A DNA stretch of 54,725 nucleotides from Thermoanaerobaculia bacterium (GCA_035455045.1 DATIFW010000253.1:1-54725); one strand, 5' to 3'; counted from the first letter of the stretch, positions 9,890 to 47,610 are shown. The notes: generated from the sequence alone by a model not told the origin. Numbers and translations are program-made.

Positions 9890-10246
9890 TCAGCGCACCG
9901 GCAGCAGCGGGAACGCGGTCGTCAGAGGCGGAAGCTCGGGCGGGTTCTCGCCCCACTCGCGCAGCTTCTGGTACGTGTAGAGCCCGTCGGCGTGACCGTC
10001 GGCCCAGAAGATCTGGAGTGCGTAGCCGCCCACGGGTCCCGTGCCGCGCACCTGGTAGGACTCGGCGGTCAAGGGCCGCGCGGGCGGCTTCATGAGCCGC
10101 CCCAGGAGGTCGCGCTCGCCCGAGCATTCCGCGCACGGGCAGAGGCGGCGAAGGTCGGCGAGCTTGAGGTACGACTCTCCCCCGTCGCCCCACGCGATCG
10201 CGAGCTCGTCCCCGAGCACCTGCACGTTCTTCGGGACGGCCGTCAC
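9890..10246 (-). CDS. DUF971 domain protein (gamma-butyrobetaine hydroxylase-like N-terminal domain)
   Basis: 118 aa. 'LAIAWGDGGESYLKLADLRRLCPCAECSGE' and 'YALQIFWADGHADGLYTYQKL' match the DUF971 pattern as I remember it. Confidence 0.75.
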   Translation of the reverse strand: MTAVPKNVQVLGDELAIAWGDGGESYLKLADLRRLCPCAECSGERDLLGRLMKPPARPLTAESYQVRGTGPVGGYALQIFWADGHADGLYTYQKLREWGENPPELPPLTTAFPLLPVR

Positions 10247-10355
10247 GGCGGGAATGGTAGCGGAGTTGCTCTCCGGGGGGCTGAGCTGCGCGCGCCCCCC
10301 TATCCCCTCAAATGAATCGCTTCTGAAGACCCCCGTCCAGAGGCTTCAGCGAACA

Positions 10356-14234: not shown

Positions 14235-14328
14235 TGGCGGACAGGGGGGGATTCGAACCCCCGGTAAGGTTTTAAAGCCCTACGGCGGTTTAGCAAACCG
14301 CTGGTTTAAGCCACTCACCCACCTGTCC
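14235..14328 (-). tRNA. tRNA-Ser (anticodon GCU), CCA encoded
   Basis: Hand-folded from the reverse complement GGACAGG-TG-...-GCGGT-TTGCTAA-ACCGC-(long variable arm)-GGGGG-TTCGAAT-CCCCC-CCTGTCC-G-CCA. The anticodon loop UU-GCU-AA and the long variable arm are typical of a class II Ser tRNA. Confidence 0.9.
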
Positions 14329-14396: not shown

Positions 14397-14484
14397 GGAG
14401 GAGTGGCCGAGTGGTTTAAGGCGGCGGTCTTGAAAACCGTTGTACCGAAAGGTACCGGGGGTTCGAATCCCTCCTCCTCCGCCA
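14397..14484 (+). tRNA. tRNA-Ser (anticodon UGA), CCA encoded
   Basis: GGAGGAG-TG-GCC..GGC-...-GCGGT-CTTGAAA-ACCGT-(long variable arm GTACCGAAAGGTAC)-GGGGG-TTCGAAT-CCCTC-CTCCTCC-G-CCA. Anticodon loop CU-UGA-AA. Confidence 0.9.
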
Positions 14485-14497
14485 ATGGCCGGCGCCG

Positions 14498-16899
<2,402 letters not shown>

Positions 16900-31859: not shown

Positions 31860-33426
31860 AGAGGCGGTCACGCATGAGGACGCCTTCGAGCGGCTCTTTC
31901 GGGTCGCGGCAGATCCAGATCGGGCGGCCGTTCTCGTAGGGCATCGCGAGCGGGTGGCCGGTCCTGCCTGCCTCCTCGACTCTCTCGAAGACGGAGGTGA
32001 GCGTTTCGCGGCGTCCTCCGATCACGACGAGCGGACCTTTGAAGGGGGCGATCCGTTTCGCGTCCGCGACGCTCCAGAGCCAGTAGGAATTGTGCGGACA
32101 GAGGACCTTCGGTGCGCCGAGGAGAGCGCCGTATCTCTCCACCGCGGCCGCCTCGCCGTAGTTGCGCGCCCAGACGCGGGCCGTCTTCCGCTCGGCCTCC
32201 GAGAGCCTTCCCGCGACGCGGGCGACCTCCGCCGCCATCTCGGGCCATCCGAAGCGGTCCGCGAAGTGCTGCGGGAGAACGCCCTTCTCGTATCGCTCCG
32301 TCGCCGGCGCGCCGATGCCGAGGCGTCCCGCATAGAGGGCGAACGTCTCGGGCGAGAGGAGCGGGATCGCGAGGGGTGCGAGTCCGACGCCGGTCGCGAG
32401 GAGGACGGCCGCATAGGCGATCGCCGGCGCCGCGCGCCGGCCGCGGTGCAGGAGGCGTCCGGCCGCGACGCCGCCCGCGGCGAGGAGCGGCGCGAACGAA
32501 GCCGCGAGGTACTCGGCCTTGCTCGTCCGGTTGGCGAGCAGGATTCCGAGCGTCGCGAGAAAGACGACGCCGAGGGGACGGAAACTCCGCCCGTCCCGAG
32601 CCGCGAGGAGCCAGGCGAGGCCCGCGATCCAGACGGGCGCGGCGAGCGGGTGAAAGAAGAGAACGAGGTCCCTCGCGAACGTGAGGGGTGAGGACGGGAC
32701 GTACTTCTCCGCCGCCGCGCGGCGCATGAACTCGAGCGTGGCCCACCCGTGCGCCCAGTTCCAAAGGACGTATGGCGCGAGGCCGAGCGCCGCGATCCCG
32801 CCCGCGAGCCACGGCCCCGTCGTCCCGAGCCAGCGCCTCGCCGGCGTCAGGACGAGCCCGGCGGCGATCCCGAATGCCAGCCAGAGGACGCTGATTTTGT
32901 TCAGGAGACCGAGCGCGAGGACGAGGCCGAGGAGGAGCCAGAGACGCGCCGCGCGCAGGCCGGGCTCTTCCTCGAGGATCGCGGCGAGGAGCGTCGCGGC
33001 AAGCGTCCACAGCAGGACGTCGAAGGCGTTCATGGAGTAATAGCCCGTCAGCCCCAGCCACGCGGGCGAGACCGCCGCGACGAGCGCGGCGAGGCCCTGT
33101 GCGGCCGCCCCGCCGCCGAAGCGTCGCGCGAGGAGGCCCGTGAGGACGACGACGGCGGCGCCGCACAGGGCCGGCGGGACCATGAGGGCCGCGGCGGAGT
33201 CGCCGAACACGGCGCGCCACACGGCGAGGAAGAGGATCGAGAACGCCGGCTGATCGACGTATCCGGCGGCGGGGTGCCTCGCGCACGCGAGGTAGTACAG
33301 CTCGTCGCGGAAGATCCCGTACCGCCCCACCGACGCGGCGTGGAGCGCCAACTGCAGGGCGGCCGCGGCGGAGAGAACAGCCCATGCCGGGCGCGCCCGG
33401 GCACGGTCGAGCGACATCATGTCCAA
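31852..33426 (-). CDS. GT39/GT83-type (ArnT/PMT-like) integral-membrane glycosyltransferase
   Basis: '[34 protein letters not shown]' followed by about 10 TM helices and a C-terminal soluble domain. TTG 33426 or ATG 33420 start. Confidence 0.8.
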
Positions 33427-33457
33427 CTGATACGCGACGCGACCGGGCCGGTTCTCG

Positions 33458-33515
33458 GGGCTTTAGGCTCGGGACGAGGGCGTCGGAATCCTTTCCGGCG
33501 GCCGCCACGCTCCGG
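33458..33515 (-). repeat. Degenerate copy of the last ~20 codons of gene 37372-37950 (direct repeat copy A, non-coding remnant)
   Basis: Hand alignment of 33458-33515 against 37375-37432 gives 54/58 identical, including a 29-nt perfect run AATCCTTTCCGGCGGCCGCCACGCTCCGG. It would encode ...RSVAAAGKDSDALVPSLKP versus the genuine ...RSVAAAGKDFDALVASLKP*. Similarity decays with indels beyond 33516. Confidence 0.8.
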
Positions 33516-33576
33516 AAGGCGCGAAGCCGGGGGGCTGATCTTCCGCCCTTCGAAGACGGCTCGGGCTGACCGAGCC

Positions 33577-35037
33577 TCAGTCGATGGCCGGTAGCTCCGA
33601 TAGGCCGGCGGCCCGGACTTCTCGTCGCATGACGTCGTCGAGGGCGCGCGTCACGTCCTCTGACGGCGGGCGAGGCGGGCACTTCGCGAGCCGGCGCTCG
33701 ACCTCTTTCGCGGCCTCCTCGTGCGCCCAGGGGGCGCCCCGCGCTTCCCAGTCACCGTAGGTGTCGCGGGCCACGAGCGCCGACGGGACCGTGAGCTCCA
33801 GCCGCCAGTGCTTCCGGGTGTGGGGATGCGAGAGGAACTCGGCCGATTCGACGACCTGCCGGATCAGGCCGGCGGCGCCATCCCCGCCGCGGTCGATCCC
33901 GCGCACGAGCCGGAGCGCCATGCCGCAGGCCTCGTGGTCCAGGAGGAGCTTCTCGAACGACTGGCAGATCTCGAAATCGAGCATTCCGGGGCCCGAGACG
34001 ACGTTGATGCCGGCCAGAGCCGCGAGGAGCGCCCCCACCCCGCTCTCGAGTCCCGCCTGATAGTCGGGGCACTTCGAGTCCGAAAGCCCCATGTAGGCGT
34101 GCGTGGGAAGGCCGAGGCGCTTGCCGGCCTGCGACGAGGCGAGGTTGATCATCATCGTCTCCACGGCGCCCATCGGGGTCGTGCCGTGGCGCATGTCCAT
34201 CGCCGCAGGCGAGCCGCCCCAGATGATCGGCGAGCCGGGCCCCGCGAGCTGGTGGATGACGACGCCGCTCAGGTTCTCCGCGCACTGCTGGACTGACGCC
34301 TCGCGGAGCGTGACCGGCGACGTCGCTCCGGCCAGCGGCATGGAGACCAGCTCTGCTGGGATTCCCGTGCGGGCGCAGTCGACGAGCGCCTGGCAGGTCA
34401 GGTCGCTCCACTTCAGCGGAGGGCTCGGGCAGCAGTCGAACACGGCGAGGGGACGGCGCCTCAGCTCCGCGTCGCTGCCGCGCACGGCGAGGAGCAGCTC
34501 GCGCATGGGGGCGAAGCCATCCTTCCGAAACGTGCCGGTGACGACCGGCTTTTGGGCGCTGCGGAGGATGAGGTAGAGCCTGTAGCGGTCCGCAACCTCG
34601 CCCGGGACGTCACCCGGCGTCAGCGCCGTCGACTGGGCGGCGTAGTTCGGCAGGCCGTCGACGAGGCGGGCGAACCGGACGACGTCCCTGGTCGCGATCG
34701 CCCGGCGTCGTCCGGTGGAAGCGTCGAAGAGATGAATGGCCGCGGAGCCGGGATCGAAATGGACCCGATCTCCGCCGAGGTCCATCGCGGGAGCGCCGTC
34801 CCGATCGAAAAGCTCGATGCGCGACGGAACCTTCGCCAGCGCCTCGCGAGCCATCGTTTCCGGAATCCTGAAGCGGCCGCCCGCTTCCGAGGCTCCCCCG
34901 TCCCGGAGAAGGGCCTGCGCGTCCTGGTTCTCGACGAGGACCCCCGACTCCGAAAGAACGTCGAAGGCGTCCTGCAAGACGCTCTCGACGTCAACGGACG
35001 AAAGAAGCGACACGGTGGGTCTCAACGGCGTTGCCAT
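33577..35037 (-). CDS. MttB-superfamily (trimethylamine methyltransferase family) substrate:corrinoid methyltransferase, non-pyrrolysine type
   Basis: 486-aa uninterrupted ORF. TIM-barrel MttB-like blocks 'VHFDPGSAAIHLFD', 'LAVFDCCPSPPLKWSD', 'PAELVSMPLAGATSPVTL', 'IIWGGSPAAMDMRHGTTPMGAVE', 'VVSGPGMLDFEICQSFEKLLLDHE'. No in-frame TAG. Confidence 0.85.
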   Translation of the reverse strand: MATPLRPTVSLLSSVDVESVLQDAFDVLSESGVLVENQDAQALLRDGGASEAGGRFRIPETMAREALAKVPSRIELFDRDGAPAMDLGGDRVHFDPGSAAIHLFDASTGRRRAIATRDVVRFARLVDGLPNYAAQSTALTPGDVPGEVADRYRLYLILRSAQKPVVTGTFRKDGFAPMRELLLAVRGSDAELRRRPLAVFDCCPSPPLKWSDLTCQALVDCARTGIPAELVSMPLAGATSPVTLREASVQQCAENLSGVVIHQLAGPGSPIIWGGSPAAMDMRHGTTPMGAVETMMINLASSQAGKRLGLPTHAYMGLSDSKCPDYQAGLESGVGALLAALAGINVVSGPGMLDFEICQSFEKLLLDHEACGMALRLVRGIDRGGDGAAGLIRQVVESAEFLSHPHTRKHWRLELTVPSALVARDTYGDWEARGAPWAHEEAAKEVERRLAKCPPRPPSEDVTRALDDVMRREVRAAGLSELPAID

Positions 35038-35044
35038 CAGCTCG

Positions 35045-35740
35045 TCACCTCGCGGGAAGAACGCGATGCCCTCCTCCGGCGGGCCGCCGGTAGCGACAGT
35101 GCGGGAGGCCGCAGGTGTCGCATCCGGAGAGCCCGGACCTCGGCGCCCGCTCGGCGCCGATCCAGAGGGCGAAGGAGATCGACTTGCGCGGAACCATCAT
35201 CATGGACGAATTCAAGGAGACGCCGAGCGCCTCGTGAGGGAGGAAGGAGAAAAGGGCCTTCTGGGCGGACAGGGGCCACCGGCCGTACCCGGGGCTGACC
35301 CGGCAGCCGACGTCCAGCTCCCCGCTTGTCCTGCCGCCGACGACCCGCGCGCTCAGCCTGTTCGCGGCTTCCTCGGCGGCGGCACTTCCCGCGGCGTCCA
35401 GCAGGAGGGCGCGCGAATCCTCTCCCCGGCCGAGAAGCTCCGTCACGCGGCGCTCGATCCCGCCGCCCGCGGTGACGAGGCCGAGGACGAGGCCGTCGGC
35501 GGGTTCCGCCGGGAGGCCGACCTCGCCGGCCGAGGAGACTGGCAGTCTCCGGAACCCGCCACGCGCGGCCGCGAGCGAGCGGGCCTCGCGAAGGGCGTCT
35601 TTCAAAAGGGGCTCGAGCCGCGTCGCCGGGCGCCGTCCCTTCGGATAGCCGAGGAAGTGGAGGACCTCGCTCTCCGGAATGGAGAGTCGAAGCCGCGAGA
35701 CGATCACGGGGCGGCCTGCCGACGAAGCGGCAGACGACAT
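35045..35740 (-). CDS. Stand-alone homologue of the methionine synthase (MetH) reactivation/AdoMet-binding domain
   Basis: 'RVSPGYGRWPLSAQKALFSFLPHEALGVSLNSSMMMVPRKSISFALWIG' parallels '[52 protein letters not shown]' in the metH of this window. C-terminal 'CDTCGLPHC'. ATG 35740 lies 23 nt after the upstream stop. The stop lies 7 nt before the mttB start. Confidence 0.7.
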   Translation of the reverse strand: MSSAASSAGRPVIVSRLRLSIPESEVLHFLGYPKGRRPATRLEPLLKDALREARSLAAARGGFRRLPVSSAGEVGLPAEPADGLVLGLVTAGGGIERRVTELLGRGEDSRALLLDAAGSAAAEEAANRLSARVVGGRTSGELDVGCRVSPGYGRWPLSAQKALFSFLPHEALGVSLNSSMMMVPRKSISFALWIGAERAPRSGLSGCDTCGLPHCRYRRPAGGGHRVLPAR

Positions 35741-35763
35741 CGCATCGTGCCTCGGGAGGCGGG

Positions 35764-36654
35764 TCACGGTCGGGACTCCTTCGAGTGGAGACGGCGCGCG
35801 AGCGCCCGGATGAAGCGCGGATCGGTTCCGCAGCATCCGCCGACCAGCTCGACGCCGAGGGAGGCGACCCGAGCCATCTCCTCGGCGAAGGCCTCCGGCG
35901 CCTGCGAGTAGAAGACGGCGCCGCCCTGCATCTCGGGCGCCCCGGCATTGGGCTGGATGACGAGCGGGAGACCCACCGCGGCGCGGGACTCCTCGGCGAG
36001 CAGCCGCATGTCGGCGCTGGCGAGCGTGCAGTTCGCGCCGACGGCGTCGGCCCCCGCCTCGCCGAGCGATCGGAGCGATCCCGCCAGTGCGTCTCCCATG
36101 ATCGTGAAGAAGCCGCGCTTCTTCCTCTCGAAGGTCAGCGACACCATCACGGGAAGGGAAGAAGCGCTTTCCTTCAAGGCTTCGAGGGCGATCAGGGCCT
36201 CGCGCAGGTCCGTCATGGTCTCGACGTGCAGGGCGTCCGGCGCGGCGGCGGCCAGCGCCCGCCCCTGCCGAACGAAGGCCTCCTTCCAGGACCGTCGGTC
36301 GCCCGTCCCGACCGGAGGGAGATATTCGCCCGTGGGACCGACGTCCGCGAGGACGAAACGTGCGCCGGATTCCCGGGCGAGCCGGACTGCTTCCGCGTTG
36401 AGCGCCTCGCACCGGTCGGCGAGAGAGGACCGTGCGAGCCGGATCGCGTTCGCCCCGAAGGTCGCCGTGTGAACGGCGTCGCTCCCGGCGCCGACGTAAT
36501 CGCCATGCGCACGGCGGACGTCGTCGGGGCGCGAAAGGACCCACGACTCGGGCGCCTCGCCTCCGCCGAGCCCTCGCGCGATGAGCAGGCTTCCAAGGCC
36601 TCCATCCAGGAGTGTCGTCTCTCGGCGGCGCAGGCGCTCGGCGAAGGCGTTCAC
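35764..36654 (-). CDS. Zn-dependent homocysteine/thiol S-methyltransferase domain protein (PF02574 type)
   Basis: 'TLLDGGLGSLL', 'VGANCTLAS', 'LVGGCCGTDPRFIRAL' (Cys and Cys-Cys zinc ligands). Same three motifs as in the metH and Hcy-MT/MTHFR genes of this window. GTG start at 36654, 25 nt after the corrinoid-protein stop. Confidence 0.85.
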   Translation of the reverse strand: MNAFAERLRRRETTLLDGGLGSLLIARGLGGGEAPESWVLSRPDDVRRAHGDYVGAGSDAVHTATFGANAIRLARSSLADRCEALNAEAVRLARESGARFVLADVGPTGEYLPPVGTGDRRSWKEAFVRQGRALAAAAPDALHVETMTDLREALIALEALKESASSLPVMVSLTFERKKRGFFTIMGDALAGSLRSLGEAGADAVGANCTLASADMRLLAEESRAAVGLPLVIQPNAGAPEMQGGAVFYSQAPEAFAEEMARVASLGVELVGGCCGTDPRFIRALARRLHSKESRP

Positions 36655-36679
36655 ACGGATCTTCCCGTCTTGATGATGA

Positions 36680-37324
36680 TCAGGCGCGCCGGGAGGCGTT
36701 TGCCAGCGACTCGGCGACCGCGACGGCGCGAAGGGCGTTCTCCGCCCAGGCTGCGCCGATCTGCGCGGCCCAGGCCGCCGTCGTCGGCGCGCCGCCGACG
36801 AGAAGCCGCGGCCGCGGAGCGAGCCCGAGGGATGGAATGCCATCCGCGATGGCCTTCTGGACCGGCATCGTGGTTGTCAGGAGCGCCGAGGCCGCGATGA
36901 TGTCGGCGCCGTTCTCCTTCGCCCGTGCGAGGAAGCGGTCGACGGACACGTCGCTTCCGAGGTCGTCCACCTCGAATCCCCCAGCCGAGAGGAGCGTCGC
37001 GACGAGAGTCTTCCCGATGTCGTGGAGGTCGCCCTGGACCGTTCCGATGACGACCCGGCCCTTCGAGACCTGTCCACCGTGGCTCTTCCGAAGCGCGGGC
37101 TGGAGGACGCCCATGGCGGCTTTCATCGCCTCCGCGCCCTGGACCAGCTCCGGAAGGAAGTACTCCCCTTCTTCCCAGAGATCGCCCACCTTTCTGATCC
37201 CGGCCGCAAATCCCTGCTCGATCGCCGCGACGAGGTCGCCGTCGGCGTCGACGACTCCTTCGGCCAGCCTCCTCGCCCGAGGCGCGTCCCCCTGGACGAC
37301 GGCTTCCCTCATCTCTCTGTACAT
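36680..37324 (-). CDS. Corrinoid (cobalamin-binding) protein, MtgC/MtbC/MetH-B12-domain type
   Basis: Cap helix region 'AIEQGFAAGIRKVGDLWEEGEYFLPELV'. Base-off/His-on motif 'GTVQGDLHDIGK' (DxHxxG), 'SALLTTT', 'LVGGAP'. ATG 37324 is preceded by GGAG. Confidence 0.9.
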   Translation of the reverse strand: MYREMREAVVQGDAPRARRLAEGVVDADGDLVAAIEQGFAAGIRKVGDLWEEGEYFLPELVQGAEAMKAAMGVLQPALRKSHGGQVSKGRVVIGTVQGDLHDIGKTLVATLLSAGGFEVDDLGSDVSVDRFLARAKENGADIIAASALLTTTMPVQKAIADGIPSLGLAPRPRLLVGGAPTTAAWAAQIGAAWAENALRAVAVAESLANASRRA

Positions 37325-37371
37325 CAGGACCTGCTCCAGACTCCCATTCTCCGACTCTTCAATGTTCGATT

Positions 37372-37950
37372 TCAGGGTTTGAGGCTCGCGACGAGGGCGT
37401 CGAAATCCTTTCCGGCGGCCGCCACGCTCCGGCGCGGGCCGGTGAGCTTGAAGAACAGGGCTCCGTTCGGTCCCTCGGCGATCGCGCCGCGGAGCGCAAA
37501 GCCGCTCTTCGCAGCCGGCGAGGCGCCCATTCCCGTTCCCGCGGAGTACGTTCCCGCAGCCGTCACGAGCGTCACGGGCAGCGAGCCGACGCGCATGAGA
37601 CTGCGAGTGGGCTTCGGGTCGCCGGCCGCGGCCGCGAACTGCGAGAACCACCGCTCCACGTTCGCGTCCACGCTCCCGCCCTTGCCCGGGCCGAACCAGA
37701 AGACGGCCATCTCCGGCTTTTCGGCGTCCCCCGCCGAGGCGGGAAGGAAGTACGTCGCGAGCCTCATCGCGGACGACGGCCCGGGCACCCACGCCTTCGG
37801 CACCGCCCACGTCAGCCCGCCGCCGGAGGTCACGGGGAAGACGGGCGCCGGTGTCGCGGCAGCGGCGGGCGGGGAGGCATGCGACGAGACGAGCTGGGCG
37901 AGTAGCGCGAGGACGGCGGAGACCTGCATGAGGCCATGATATTTCGTCAT
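37372..37950 (-). CDS. Secreted hypothetical protein
   Basis: Signal '[25 protein letters not shown]'. GGAGG lies immediately upstream of ATG 37950. I recognise no family. Its 3' end is the parent of the repeat. Confidence 0.6.
   Translation of the reverse strand: MTKYHGLMQVSAVLALLAQLVSSHASPPAAAATPAPVFPVTSGGGLTWAVPKAWVPGPSSAMRLATYFLPASAGDAEKPEMAVFWFGPGKGGSVDANVERWFSQFAAAAGDPKPTRSLMRVGSLPVTLVTAAGTYSAGTGMGASPAAKSGFALRGAIAEGPNGALFFKLTGPRRSVAAAGKDFDALVASLKP
37375..37432 (-). repeat. Direct repeat copy B (the functional 3' end of gene 37372-37950)
   Basis: See copy A at 33458-33515. Same orientation, 3917 nt apart. Confidence 0.8.
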
Positions 37951-38703
37951 ACTGCCTCCGTGGCGAGCCTCTCGGACCTGTCGCGAAAGAACCGCCTCTT
38001 CATGGCGATGTACCGGTACCGCACCCTCGATCCCGTGCCGTTCACGAGGCTCGCGAAACCGATCGAAAAGGCGAGCGTCGCGCTCGTGACGACGGGCGGC
38101 GTTCACCTGCCGTCGCAGGTTCCGTTCGACACCGAGTTGAAGGGCTGCGACGTGTCGTTCCGCGAGATCCCGGCGGACGTGGACGTTGCGACGCTCGGAA
38201 TCGCGCACAAATCCGATGCGTTCGACCAGAGCGGATTCCTCGCGGACCGCAATCTCGGCTTTCCGCTCGTGAGGCTGCGCGAGATGGCCGCGCGCGGCGA
38301 GATCGGCTCGCTGACCGCCCGCGCGCTCTCGTTCATGGGCTCGATCACGGCGCCCGGGCGGCTCGTGAAGGAGACGGCGCCTGCGGCCGCCGCGCTCCTC
38401 CAGGCGGACGGCGCCGACGCGGCGTTCCTCGTCCCGCTTTGACCCTTGTGCCATCAGACCGTCGGTCTGATCGCGGGCGAGCTCGAGCGGCGCGGCATCG
38501 CGACGACGTCCGTCACGATGCTCCGTGAGGTCACGGTGAAGGTGCGGACGCCGCGCGCCCTCGCGGTGCCGTACGCGCTCGGCTATCCGCTCGGGAAGCC
38601 GGGCGACCCCGCGCTCCAGACCCGGATCCTCCGGGCTGCCCTCCGACTCCTCGACGCCCCGGGGCCCCCTCCCGTCTTGCGCGACTTCGAAGACAGTGAG
38701 TAA
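37936..38703 (+). CDS. Probable selenoprotein of the glycine/sarcosine/betaine/D-proline reductase subunit B family (PrdB-like, ~255 aa) with in-frame UGA (Sec) at 38440-38442
   Basis: Track ORFs 37936-38442 and 38446-38703 are in the same frame and are separated only by TGA plus one codon. Read-through gives '...[37 protein letters not shown]...', a U-x-x-C motif at the position where PrdB/GrdB carry Sec. Flanking blocks '[10 protein letters not shown]', 'SFREIP', '[19 protein letters not shown]' fit the family as I remember it. The start is uncertain (ATG 37936, GTG 37960 or ATG 38002). Confidence 0.65.
38453..38471 (+). promoter_or_regulatory. SECIS-like hairpin 10 nt downstream of the in-frame UGA
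   Basis: AUCAGACC-GUC-GGUCUGAU: a perfect 8-bp stem, or 7 bp with a CGUCG loop, with G-U in the apical loop. This is the position expected for a bacterial SECIS. Confidence 0.5.
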
Positions 38704-40149: not shown

Positions 40150-40285
40150 GGTTTCATCCAGAGCGGCGGAGGGACGGGCCCTGCGATGCCGCGGCAACCG
40201 GTCCGGTGCGCCCCGAAGGGCGGCGGACGCCAGGTGCCAAATCCCGCTCCGGACCGCACGATGCGGCCGGAGGAAGATGAGATCG
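40150..40285 (+). promoter_or_regulatory. SAM-I (S-box) riboswitch aptamer
   Basis: UUCAUCCAGAGCGGCGGAGGGACGGGCCCUGCGAUGCCGCGGCAACCGG...GGUGCCAAAUCCCGC...GGAAGAUGAGA. Contains the S-box hallmarks: P1 UCAUC/GAUGA, AGAG-GGNGGAGGGA kink-turn region, GGCCC, GGCAACC, GGUGCCAAAUCC. Confidence 0.85.
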
Positions 40286-40340: not shown

Positions 40341-42233
40341 ATGAAGAAAGACATCCGGGAGCGGCTGAAGGCCGAGGTCCTCCTCACGGACGGGGCGATG
40401 GGGACGCTGCTCGTGTCACGAGGCGCGCCTGCCGAGGGCCCCCGCTCGCCGAACTCGGTCGCCGCGCCCGACCTCGTGCGCGAGATCCACGACGACTACG
40501 TGGCGGCGGGTTCGCAAGTCCTCTCCACGAACACGTGGGACGCGAACCGCGCGAAGCTCTCGCGGTTCGATTGGGCCGATTCGCTCGAGAAGATCAACCG
40601 CGCGGCCGTGAAACTCGCCCGCGCCGCGGCCGAGGGGGAATACGTCTACGTGGCGGGATCCGTCGGCCCGCTCGGACAGCTCGTGAAACCCTATGGCCCG
40701 CTCACGCGCCTCCACGTGCGCGAGCTCTTCACGGAGCAGATCCGGATCCTCCTCGAGGAGGGCGTGGACCTCCTGTCCTTCGAGACGTTCTCTTCGACGC
40801 TCGAGGCCACCGAGGCCGTCCGCGCCGCGCGCGCCCTGTCGAACCAAATCCCGATCGCCGCCTCGATGACGTTCCTCTCGGACGGCAAGACGAGCTTCGG
40901 CGAGGACGCCGCGGACGCGCTCCGGGCGCTCGTCGCGGCGGGCGCCGATGTCGTCGGGATGAACTGCACGGTCGGGCCCCAGGAGGCCTTCGAGATCTTC
41001 TCTCGCGTCGCGGGGTCGGTCGACGTGCCCGTCTCCGTGCGGCCGAACGCCGGATATCCGTGGGTCGTCTCGGGGCGCACCGTCTACCCCGCCACGCCCG
41101 ATTACTTCCGCCAGAGTGCGCGGGATTTCCTGCGCGCCGGCGCGGCGCTCGTCGGAGGCTGCTGCGGCACCGCCCCCGAGCACGTCGCCGCGATGGCGCG
41201 CGAGATCGCGGGGAAGGCGCGCGCTGTGCCGGCTCCCGCCCCGGTCGAACGCGTCGTCGTGACGGAAGGCCGCGCGGCGCGCCCGAAGGAAGCGCCGCTC
41301 GAGACCTCGGCCCTGAAGCGCAAGCTCGCCGACTCGCACGCTCTCGTCGTGACGGTCGAGGTCGAGCCGCCGAAAGGCATCGACGCCTCGGCGGCCGTGG
41401 ACGGCGCGCGCACGCTGAGGGCCCTCGGCGTGGACGCCATCAACATCACGGACAACCCGATGGCGCGGCTCAGGATGTCGTCCATCGCCGTCGCCCATCT
41501 CATCCGGACCGAGACGGGCGCCGAGACGATCTTCCATTTCTCGCCGCGCGACCGGAACGTGCTCGGCATCCAGTCGGACTTGCTGGGCGCGGCCGGGCTC
41601 GGCATCAAGGCGCTCCTCGTCGTGGGCGGCGACCCGCTGAAGATCGGCGATTACCCCCAGGCCAAGCCGGTGGGCGAGGTCGACACGCTCGGCCTCCTGC
41701 GCATCGTGCGGGGCCTGAACGCGGGCACGGATCTCGCCGGCGGCGCGATCGGCTCGGCCACGTCCTTCGCGATCGCATGCGCGGCGAATCCCGCGGCGCG
41801 GGACCTCGACGTCGAGATCTCGAAGCTCTCGGCCAAGATCGAGGCGGGCGCCACGTTCGCGCAGACGCAGCCCGTCTACGACGTGGCCGCACTCGACCGC
41901 TTCTACGCGCGTGCCGAGGCGCACGCGATCCCCGTCCTCATCGGCCTCATTCCGCCGAAGGGCCTGAAGCAGGCCCTCTATCTCGCGAACGAGGTTCCGG
42001 GCATGGTCGTGCCCGAGGAGATCCTCACGAGGATGCGCCGCGCGGCCGAGAAAGGCCCCGAGTTCGAGGAGGAAGAAGGCCTCGCGATCGCCGTCGAGCT
42101 CGCGCGCGCGATCGGCGAGCGCTCGCGCGGCCTTCACATCATGCCGATGGCGCGTTACGAGGCGGTGAAGCGGATCGTCGAGGCGCTCGGTCTCGGACAG
42201 GCCGGCGACCGGCCTGCGAGGGCCGTCTCGTGA
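40341..42233 (+). CDS. Bifunctional homocysteine S-methyltransferase / 5,10-methylenetetrahydrofolate reductase (YitJ-type fusion)
   Basis: N-terminal half: 'LLTDGAMGTLL', 'VGMNCTVGP', 'LVGGCCGTAPEHVAAM'. C-terminal half: MetF/MTHFR TIM barrel 'VTVEVEPPKG', 'INITDNPMA', 'AQTQPVYD'. Confidence 0.9.
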   Translation: MKKDIRERLKAEVLLTDGAMGTLLVSRGAPAEGPRSPNSVAAPDLVREIHDDYVAAGSQVLSTNTWDANRAKLSRFDWADSLEKINRAAVKLARAAAEGEYVYVAGSVGPLGQLVKPYGPLTRLHVRELFTEQIRILLEEGVDLLSFETFSSTLEATEAVRAARALSNQIPIAASMTFLSDGKTSFGEDAADALRALVAAGADVVGMNCTVGPQEAFEIFSRVAGSVDVPVSVRPNAGYPWVVSGRTVYPATPDYFRQSARDFLRAGAALVGGCCGTAPEHVAAMAREIAGKARAVPAPAPVERVVVTEGRAARPKEAPLETSALKRKLADSHALVVTVEVEPPKGIDASAAVDGARTLRALGVDAINITDNPMARLRMSSIAVAHLIRTETGAETIFHFSPRDRNVLGIQSDLLGAAGLGIKALLVVGGDPLKIGDYPQAKPVGEVDTLGLLRIVRGLNAGTDLAGGAIGSATSFAIACAANPAARDLDVEISKLSAKIEAGATFAQTQPVYDVAALDRFYARAEAHAIPVLIGLIPPKGLKQALYLANEVPGMVVPEEILTRMRRAAEKGPEFEEEEGLAIAVELARAIGERSRGLHIMPMARYEAVKRIVEALGLGQAGDRPARAVS

Positions 42234-43902: not shown

Positions 43903-43906
<4 letters not shown>
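42230..43906 (+). CDS. Lipoprotein with helical-repeat (TPR / DUF4034-like) region
   Basis: GTG 42230 overlaps the upstream stop (GTGA). Lipobox 'MAVAILGC'. Helical repeats ('[45 protein letters not shown]'). Its stop overlaps the metH ATG (ATGA). The DUF4034 resemblance is from memory only. Confidence 0.65.

Positions 43907-47610
<3,704 letters not shown>

Follow-up and report, generated by a model that had tools for sequence, protein, structure and literature searches.

A split counterpart of methionine synthase with a non-pyrrolysine MttB homologue in a Thermoanaerobaculia bacterium: a candidate folate-independent methyl relay to homocysteine

Introduction

Where do the methyl groups go that a non-pyrrolysine MttB homologue removes from its substrate, and do they have to pass through folate? 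We address this question for a four-gene cassette at positions 33577–37324 of a 54,725-nt stretch of DNA from a Thermoanaerobaculia bacterium (GCA_035455045.1, DATIFW010000253.1:1-54725), called the window in the following. Non-methanogen bacteria contain thousands of MttB homologues without pyrrolysine (Pyl) to which no substrate has been assigned, and metagenome papers routinely read them as trimethylamine utilisation, even as methyl donors for mercury methylation. In the cassette such a homologue is accompanied by a corrinoid protein, a homocysteine methyltransferase-family protein and a homologue of the reactivation domain of methionine synthase (MetH). An earlier annotation of the same DNA (the original prediction) had read this set as MetH modules split into separate polypeptides plus MttB as the methyl-donor module. 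We consider it fairly probable that the four proteins form a self-contained methyl relay which depends on a corrinoid and makes methionine without a folate step; this reading is strengthened by a conserved gene order, by the autonomy of the cassette and by a fusion of two of its genes.

The original prediction knew of no example with this composition. In fact, Williams et al. had published the cluster in 2022 and had independently arrived at its reading as a methionine-synthesis system (Environ Microbiol 24:2576; PMC9324843). Their paper describes a four-gene cluster in metagenome-assembled genomes (MAGs) of Electryoneota and in ‘diverse bacteria’: its products are a corrinoid protein, a homocysteine S-methyltransferase, an activation protein and a non-pyrrolysine homologue of MtgB/MttB whose clade is distinct from those of MtgB and MttB. 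Alongside it a classical multi-domain MetH is encoded, and the purely bioinformatic proposal is corrinoid-dependent methionine synthesis from an undefined methyl donor. The cassette in the window encodes the same four products, and its MttB homologue also lacks Pyl and falls outside the MtgB and Pyl-MttB clades in a neighbour-joining tree with two outgroups. We identified no difference in kind from the cluster as described there; the window adds one more case, from a Thermoanaerobaculia-like acidobacterium. Beyond the 2022 account we add the breadth and strictness of conservation (59/72 loci), the autonomy of the cassette, a fold check of the reactivation-domain homologue and its fusion to the MttB homologue, the loss of the betaine-binding motif in the latter, a Cys-rich tail in the former and basal variant architectures including one with a pterin module. 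A specialist will not be greatly surprised by this after the papers of 2022 and 2025.

Results

Three methionine synthase modules and an MttB homologue in one cassette

Four co-directional open reading frames (ORFs) lie on the minus strand in the order g1-g2-g3-g4, with intergenic gaps of 25, 23 and 7 nt calculated from the ORF coordinates; the layout agrees with the original prediction:

36680–37324, minus strand: g1, corrinoid (cobalamin-binding) protein, 214 aa (PF02607 and PF02310)
35764–36654, minus strand: g2, Zn-dependent homocysteine S-methyltransferase-family protein, 296 aa, GTG start (PF02574)
35045–35740, minus strand: g3, stand-alone homologue of the S-adenosylmethionine (AdoMet, SAM)-binding reactivation domain of MetH, 231 aa (PF02965, TM0269-like profile and fold)
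33577–35037, minus strand: g4, non-pyrrolysine MttB-superfamily methyltransferase, 486 aa (PF06253)

The G+C content of the window is ~70%, and long spurious ORFs are therefore common in it, but these four are conspicuous nonetheless. Each of the four products reaches the Pfam gathering score of its family; the NCBIfam equivalog cut-offs are reached by none of them. Like MetH, including the split TM0268/TM0269 enzyme of Thermotoga maritima, the cassette offers a homocysteine-Zn module, a cap and B12 module with the DxHxxG motif and an activation module with the RxxxGY motif. In contrast to MetH it has no pterin/folate module, and an MttB-family TIM barrel stands in its place. The anatomy proposed for the cassette, with the homocysteine, cobalamin and reactivation modules of MetH as separate proteins next to a non-Pyl MttB homologue, is thus right.

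The corrinoid protein g1 consists of a B12-binding cap (PF02607, 74 bits) and a Rossmann domain (PF02310, 87.8 bits) with the His-on DxHxxG motif. Its best NCBIfam model is of the MtgC type (195.5 bits, cut-off 310) and the next is pyl_corrinoid (174.8 bits), both above MetH. The stretches GDxHDIGK, SALLTTTM and GG, which form the region of the His-on cobalamin ligand triad, are conserved in 53 orthologues. For g2, the match to PF02574 that had been set beforehand as a check was found at 198.8 bits. The top NCBIfam models of g2 remain below their cut-offs: the N-terminal half of a homocysteine methyltransferase (HcyMT)/MTHFR fusion (216.8 bits) and PRK07534, a model of alphaproteobacterial betaine-homocysteine methyltransferases (183.4 bits, cut-off 338). 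Three cysteines, C209 in GANC and C274 and C275 in GGCCG, are the predicted Zn ligands; they are conserved at a level of at least 95% in 60 orthologues, as is E145 of the ET.xD motif, and D17 of the DGG motif reaches 80–95%. We take this Glu and the DGG motif to hold the amino-acid end of homocysteine, as in the structures of MetH and BHMT. All motifs of g1 and g2 quoted in the original prediction are therefore present and conserved across 53–60 orthologues, and g2 is predicted to be a methylcorrinoid:homocysteine methyltransferase (MT2).

These features also bear on the possibility that the four proteins operate in the same relay with an acceptor of g2 other than homocysteine (a different thiol or selenol, for example a low-molecular-weight thiol, selenohomocysteine or a cofactor), which would make the cassette a demethylase or thiol methylase. 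PF02574 includes selenocysteine- and S-methylmethionine-dependent methyltransferases, g2 scores below every NCBIfam equivalog cut-off, and methanogen MttB-family systems hand the methyl group to the thiol coenzyme M (CoM). However, g2 retains the DGG motif, the Glu of ET.xD and the three Zn cysteines, and its nearest relatives use homocysteine. We regard a different acceptor as improbable and homocysteine as the predicted one.

The window contains a complete MetH of its own, and we considered whether the cassette could be a recent break-up product of this neighbour. This was rejected since g1 is only 37% identical to the B12 domain and g2 only 34% to the homocysteine domain of that MetH (36% to the YitJ-like protein of the window); g1 moreover receives higher scores from methylamine/MtgC-type corrinoid models than from MetH.

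The gene order is conserved among distant bacteria

A scan of one genome per species yielded 441 matching stretches. The best 80 of these are without exception MAGs, assigned to Thermoanaerobaculia and other Acidobacteriota, Aminicenantes, Krumholzibacteriota, Eisenbacteria, Latescibacterota, Zixibacteria, Gemmatimonadota, Myxococcota, Riflebacteria, Omnitrophota and others. Loci with at least 2.4 kb upstream of the MttB gene were taken as informative. Conservation of the order had been named beforehand as a check on the prediction: tblastn with g1–g3 finds g1-g2-g3-g4 complete in 59 of these 72 species-level loci, at 53–93% MttB identity. Four contigs looked up directly (MttB identities of 88%, 67%, 64% and 62%) show the same succession in 4/4 cases and in unrelated contexts: B12-binding, S-methyl_trans, PF02965-like (~220–245 aa) and MTTB. 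The arrangement is therefore not due to chance. In an Eisenbacteria MAG (GCA_016235265.1, locus L004, 8001–10133) the homologues of g3 and g4 are fused into one protein of 710 aa, directly after the corrinoid and S-methyl_trans genes. Among 97 immediately flanking genes no Pfam family occurs more than 3 times, the maximum being AA_permease with 3 occurrences in close relatives; the cassette is thus an autonomous unit. The best match (L007, a Thermoanaerobaculia MAG, 93% MttB identity) is syntenic with the window over yitJ, purD, a GrdB-like gene, a gene for a small secreted protein and the cassette.

Other gene arrangements are found in the basal sister group of the full-cassette MttB clade in the neighbour-joining tree. 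A Gemmatimonadota chromosome (CP070758.1, locus L081, 5211–9188) carries genes for a corrinoid protein, MttB, Pterin_bind (265 aa) and S-methyl_trans (301 aa) in a row, and no PF02965-like gene was detected in this variant cassette. The layout of L081 is MtgBCDE-like, within a single operon, and its position is basal in the same MttB clade. Four loci from Aminicenantes-type and other MAGs (L070, L082, L083 and L084) combine corrinoid protein, MttB and a short PF02965-like gene; a homocysteine methyltransferase does not occur within 6 kb. Two further loci (L080 and L085) have only the corrinoid-MttB pair, and a few basal loci lone MttB genes. Taken together, the variants show the mix-and-match pattern expected of systems built from a methyl-donor:corrinoid methyltransferase (MT1), a corrinoid protein and an MT2.

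g3 resembles the reactivation domain of MetH and carries a Cys-rich tail

The assignment of g3 was the least obvious of the four: the Pfam match to PF02965, a further check set beforehand, reaches 28.4 bits against a gathering score of 25 and covers residues 88–190 only, and nearly all of its 354 database relatives are unnamed or annotated as hypothetical protein. A profile of 37 orthologues matches TM0269 of T. maritima (1j6r) at E = 5.9e-13. The AlphaFold2 model of g3 has a mean predicted local distance difference test (pLDDT) score of 85.5, and in a Foldseek search with this model the top 19 matches are all MetH activation domains: 1j6r comes first (E = 2.4e-10, TMt 0.71), and the 19 include the T. 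thermophilus structures 8sse/8ssd, the E. coli structures 1msk/6bm5 and the human structure 2o2k, with all remaining matches at E > 0.4. In the alignment of the 37 orthologues, C146, R147, S149, P150, G151, G153 and W155 are invariant and Y152 is conserved at a level of at least 90% (CRxSPGYGxW). This stretch contains the RxxxGY AdoMet motif of MetH. Also invariant are P184, R185, K186, S187, S189 and F190 (PRKSxSF). Orthologue alignment, TM0269 profile match and predicted fold together show g3 to be a genuine homologue of the MetH reactivation domain, and AdoMet binding is predicted for it. The borderline Pfam score is thus backed by profile and fold. The separate reactivation module is a further likeness to the split MetH of T. 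maritima, whose TM0269 is the best match of g3 in sequence and in fold.

In one respect g3 differs from TM0269. It ends in a C-terminal Cys-rich tail, GCxxCxxxxCRYRR (window positions 35045–35128), whose C207, C210 and C215 are invariant in the 37 orthologues. The C-x2-C-x4-C tail occurs in 62 of 69 g3-like ORFs and is absent in the cassette variants without the homocysteine module. Many members have an extra Cys right before RxxxGY, and those without it have an extra Cys or His in the tail. TM0269 has Phe, not Cys, before RxxxGY, and it probably has no such tail, since the aligned part stops 10 residues short of its C terminus. The tail of g3, modelled at low confidence by AlphaFold2, looks like a metal site, for Zn or an Fe-S cluster. 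In the corrinoid iron-sulfur protein a C-x2-C-x4-C-x16-C motif binds a [4Fe-4S] cluster, which gives a lead for this tail.

g4 forms a third branch of the MttB superfamily and lacks the betaine-binding residues

The methyltransferase g4 matches PF06253 with 261 bits and scores 334 bits against TIGR02369, the model of Pyl-containing MttB, below its cut-off of 525. It is 29.2% identical to both MttB of M. barkeri (7xcl) and MtgB of D. hafniense (2qne), which are mutually 31% identical (PMC9842639). As g4 is about as far from either protein as these are from each other, it appears to represent a third branch of comparable depth. More remote is the sole alphaproteobacterial structure, 4yyc of S. 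meliloti, with 119 bits versus 179 for MttB and MtgB. In our tree, a rough one with two outgroup sequences, the MttB proteins of full cassettes form one large clade apart from both outgroups. The gene is one uninterrupted ORF of 486 aa with Leu318 at the position of Pyl334 of M. barkeri MttB, in agreement with the original description of g4 as uninterrupted and non-Pyl. Functional positions of the two characterized enzymes correspond to g4 as follows (MtgB residues were mapped by pairwise HMMER alignment):

MttB Pyl334 (pyrrolysine): g4 Leu318
MttB Tyr364 (catalytic Tyr): g4 Ser348
MttB Gly110-Thr111 (cis-peptide): g4 Gly97-Ser98
MtgB Y97 (glycine betaine binding): g4 S98
MtgB R312 (glycine betaine binding): g4 H313
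MtgB H348 (glycine betaine binding): g4 S348
MtgB F356 (glycine betaine binding): g4 E356, with F355 adjacent

Both the pyrrolysine and the catalytic Tyr of MttB are thus replaced, and none of the four MtgB residues is conserved. The residues S98, H313, S348 and D354 of g4 are invariant within the clade (alignment A1). Binding of glycine betaine by Y97, R312, H348 and F356 of MtgB was established by mutagenesis and a ligand-bound structure, and the Arg at position 312 is conserved in all characterized members, which act on acidic quaternary amines (Picking et al. 2026, PMC13080624). Since these residues, including R312, are replaced in g4, a betaine as the methyl donor, one of the candidates originally put forward, is doubtful; glycine betaine, carnitine, proline betaine and similar compounds appear to be poor guesses. 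The neighbourhood gives no clue to the substrate either, as no transporter or catabolic gene recurs beside the cassettes among the 97 flanking genes. We predict g4 to be the MT1 of the cassette.

In principle g4 could also work in the opposite, biosynthetic direction: g2 would take a methyl group from a sulfonium compound, S-methylmethionine or SAM for example, and load it onto the corrinoid, and an amine would then be methylated by g4 to give a methylated osmolyte. Some PF02574 enzymes do bind sulfonium methyl donors. On the other hand, PF02574 enzymes work by Zn-thiolate attack and do not demethylate a donor towards Co(I), SAM is the direct methyl source in known osmolyte N-methylations, and the MttB-family members in the papers cited here all remove methyl groups from amines. 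A reversed flow is therefore very hard to credit, and we retain the direction from amine to corrinoid.

A proposed methyl relay from an amine to homocysteine

Domain identities, catalytic and ligand motifs, gene order, the autonomy of the cassette and one gene fusion are shown above; from these we infer the direction of methyl flow, homocysteine as the acceptor, the class of donor, the mode of reactivation and the source of electrons. Folate-independent transfer from an amine to homocysteine is the most economical reading of the cassette, plausible and internally consistent. In a first step, g4 would demethylate a methylated amine, which is probably not a carboxylated betaine, and thereby methylate Co(I)-g1. 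In a second step, g2 would pass the methyl group of methyl-Co(III) to Zn-activated homocysteine, yielding methionine and Co(I). In a third step, Co(II)-g1 would be rescued by g3 via reductive methylation with SAM. Two precedents make this chemistry credible: in Ruegeria pomeroyi a single corrinoid protein is required for two processes, the demethylation of glycine betaine, in which the MttB-family protein MtgB is implicated, and PF02574-dependent methionine synthesis (PMC12478193), and mixed MtaABC/MtgABC enzyme sets are reported to methylate thiols with glycine betaine in vitro (PMC13618148). Since the same organism has a MetH under control of a SAM riboswitch, the cassette is most likely an auxiliary route that salvages environmental methyl groups into the methionine/SAM pool, not the sole methionine synthase.

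Several points weigh against such a relay. The betaine-binding residues of MtgB and the pyrrolysine of MttB are both missing from g4. No riboswitch, including methionine-, SAM- and B12-responsive ones, was found ahead of the cassette, either in the window or among 11 related loci; in the window only the metH operon has a SAM riboswitch. A link to folate exists at the edge of the clade (L081), and a pterin partner could be encoded elsewhere. In MtgBCDE, the only relative that has been characterized, neither the demethylation of glycine betaine nor the synthesis of methionine proceeds without the pterin module MtgD, and a direct flow from MtgB via MtgC to MtgE was not demonstrated (PMC12478193). 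We found no biochemical or genetic test of any cassette member in open-access papers and bioRxiv.

A bolder version of the proposal appears rather doubtful to us and is mentioned for its consequences. The cassette would be a fifth kind of methionine synthase, folate-independent and fed by a methylated amine that is neither Pyl-dependent trimethylamine nor a carboxylated betaine, in which g3 joins a MetH-type AdoMet site with a metal centre of its own (the C-x2-C-x4-C tail, often together with the Cys by RxxxGY). If this were true and the metal centre were an Fe-S cluster, it could draw electrons straight from ferredoxin and so replace flavodoxin and RamA.

The cassette fixes one large clade of MttB homologues in partnership with a homocysteine methyltransferase. 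Many of the 441 matching stretches belong to uncultured phyla. If methyl transfer from an amine to homocysteine is indeed its function, methyl groups of environmental methylated amines would feed methionine and SAM directly, sparing folate one-carbon units, and the annotation of cassette MttB genes as trimethylamine methyltransferases would be wrong. Small and autonomous as it is, the cassette also lends itself to clean experiments on what non-Pyl MttB homologues do.

Comparison with systems that deliver methyl groups to folate

The original prediction had described the characterized non-Pyl MttB systems as delivering to tetrahydrofolate via an MtgA-type enzyme and as relying on RamA-type activases. 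This holds in part. In the D. hafniense MtgB/MtgC/MtgA system and with MtpB/MtcB/MtyB of Eubacterium limosum, a non-Pyl MttB-superfamily MT1 methylates its cognate corrinoid protein, a likeness to the predicted roles of g4 and g1; there MtgA passes the methyl group on to tetrahydrofolate, and RamA serves as the ATP-dependent activase. The MtgBCDE system of R. pomeroyi and Phaeobacter inhibens (Mausz et al. 2025, PMC12478193; bioRxiv 10.64898/2025.12.19.695462) likewise needs a pterin module and RamA. However, MtgBCDE includes a PF02574 protein, and in Methanolobus vulcani the methyl group is delivered to CoM, not to folate.

Of these systems MtgBCDE is the one that ties amine demethylation to methionine synthesis: its MttB-family MT1, its corrinoid protein and its PF02574 module are separate proteins grouped around one cobalamin carrier, as in the cassette. 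The match is limited, with g2 at 183 bits against PRK07534 (cut-off 338) and g1 at 195 bits against MtgC (cut-off 310). MtgBCDE also differs in having an essential MtgD (PF00809), and the cassette and the window contain no stand-alone PF00809 protein. Its reactivation is by RamA and DUF1638, in the cassette a PF02965-type protein is found instead. Furthermore, mtgE mostly does not lie beside mtgBCD and most carriers are without MetH, whereas here the four genes are tightly clustered and a MetH is encoded as well. Relative to the characterized MetH, MtgBCDE and MtgABC, the cassette is thus a distinct variant.

The most serious alternative follows from this comparison. Here g1 would be a shared hub as MtgC is: methyl groups derived from g4 would go mainly to tetrahydrofolate via a pterin-binding methyltransferase encoded elsewhere in the genome, in a catabolic demethylation, and g2 would use this corrinoid only for making methionine from methyl-tetrahydrofolate. 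The system of R. pomeroyi and P. inhibens is thought to work in this way: both functions depend on MtgD there, and MtgB and MtgE are viewed as competitors for MtgCD; L081 has all four parts in a row; and our view of the genome spans 54.7 kb. Several findings speak against it. Among the sizeable ORFs of the 54.7-kb window, Pfam finds no stand-alone pterin methyltransferase (PF00809), RamA or DUF1638, and PF00809 occurs only inside MetH, with no match in g1–g4. This agrees with the original statement that neither an MtgA-type pterin enzyme nor RamA is encoded at the cassette. None of the three was found in the 8-kb flanks of the four relatives looked up directly. A tblastn search with the pterin domain of MetH gave no match in 86 related loci, among which Pfam finds one, only in variant L081, and the 25 families listed, of 88, for the 97 immediate neighbours do not include Pterin_bind. 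Moreover, the cassette stands without a pterin gene in 59 of 72 loci, and the homocysteine module, usually apart in the marine systems, is here the constant partner while the pterin module is the missing one. The full MetH already covers synthesis dependent on methyl-tetrahydrofolate, so that a second, split MetH would be redundant, and the reactivation protein is of the MetH type (PF02965) and not RamA/DUF1638. On balance we judge a folate-centred hub to be unlikely and favour direct transfer from the amine via g1 to homocysteine.

Genomic context of the cassette

The canonical route to methionine is encoded on the opposite strand of the window; the gene next to g1, on the strand of the cassette, is listed last:

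40151–40283, plus strand: SAM (S-box) riboswitch, 72 bits, ahead of the following fusion gene
40341–42233, plus strand: fusion of homocysteine S-methyltransferase (S-methyl_trans) and MTHFR (YitJ-like), 630 aa, from Pfam
43903–47610, plus strand: complete five-domain MetH, downstream of the riboswitch-led fusion gene and 6.6 kb from the cassette
37372–37947, minus strand: protein of 191 aa, N terminus signal-peptide-like, without Pfam match, ending 47 nt upstream of g1

Riboswitch and MetH together indicate that a folate- and B12-dependent route is present under SAM control. A riboswitch/RNA search of the window and 11 relatives matched only this yitJ-metH SAM riboswitch and two tRNAs, and a scan of 33300–38100 for sigma-70 promoters and terminators gave nothing usable. 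The gene at 37372–37947 was rejected as a member of the cassette; among 86 related loci it is seen only in the closest relative, L007. Pfam found no betaine, choline or methylamine genes, no betaine/choline transporter and no downstream demethylation gene among the sizeable ORFs of the window. A link to mercury methylation was dropped, as the window contains no hgcAB.

Some further features of the window were recorded. At 9890–10345 (minus strand), 23 kb from the cassette, a small protein with a gamma-butyrobetaine-hydroxylase-like N-terminal domain is encoded (PF06155, 64.6 bits); despite a name reminiscent of betaine metabolism, no connection with the cassette was seen. Two divergent tRNA genes, at 14238–14328 (minus strand, 57 bits) and 14397–14481 (plus strand, 61.5 bits), lie beside a seryl-tRNA synthetase gene (14498–15994). 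An ORF of the GrdB/PrdB family at 37936–38703 (plus strand; PF07355, E = 8e-7 with U read as C) is oriented so that its transcription leads away from the cassette. It contains an in-frame TGA at 38440–38442, after which the frame continues, giving a U-x-x-C motif. A stem-loop with an 8-bp core begins ~11 nt past this TGA (minimum free energy −18.5 kcal/mol, z = −1.65). The GrdB-like gene of L007 has the same in-frame TGA (VPL-U-PMCHQ), and its C-terminal part is 87% identical to that of the window. The ORF thus probably encodes a small selenoprotein of the glycine/betaine/proline reductase B family.

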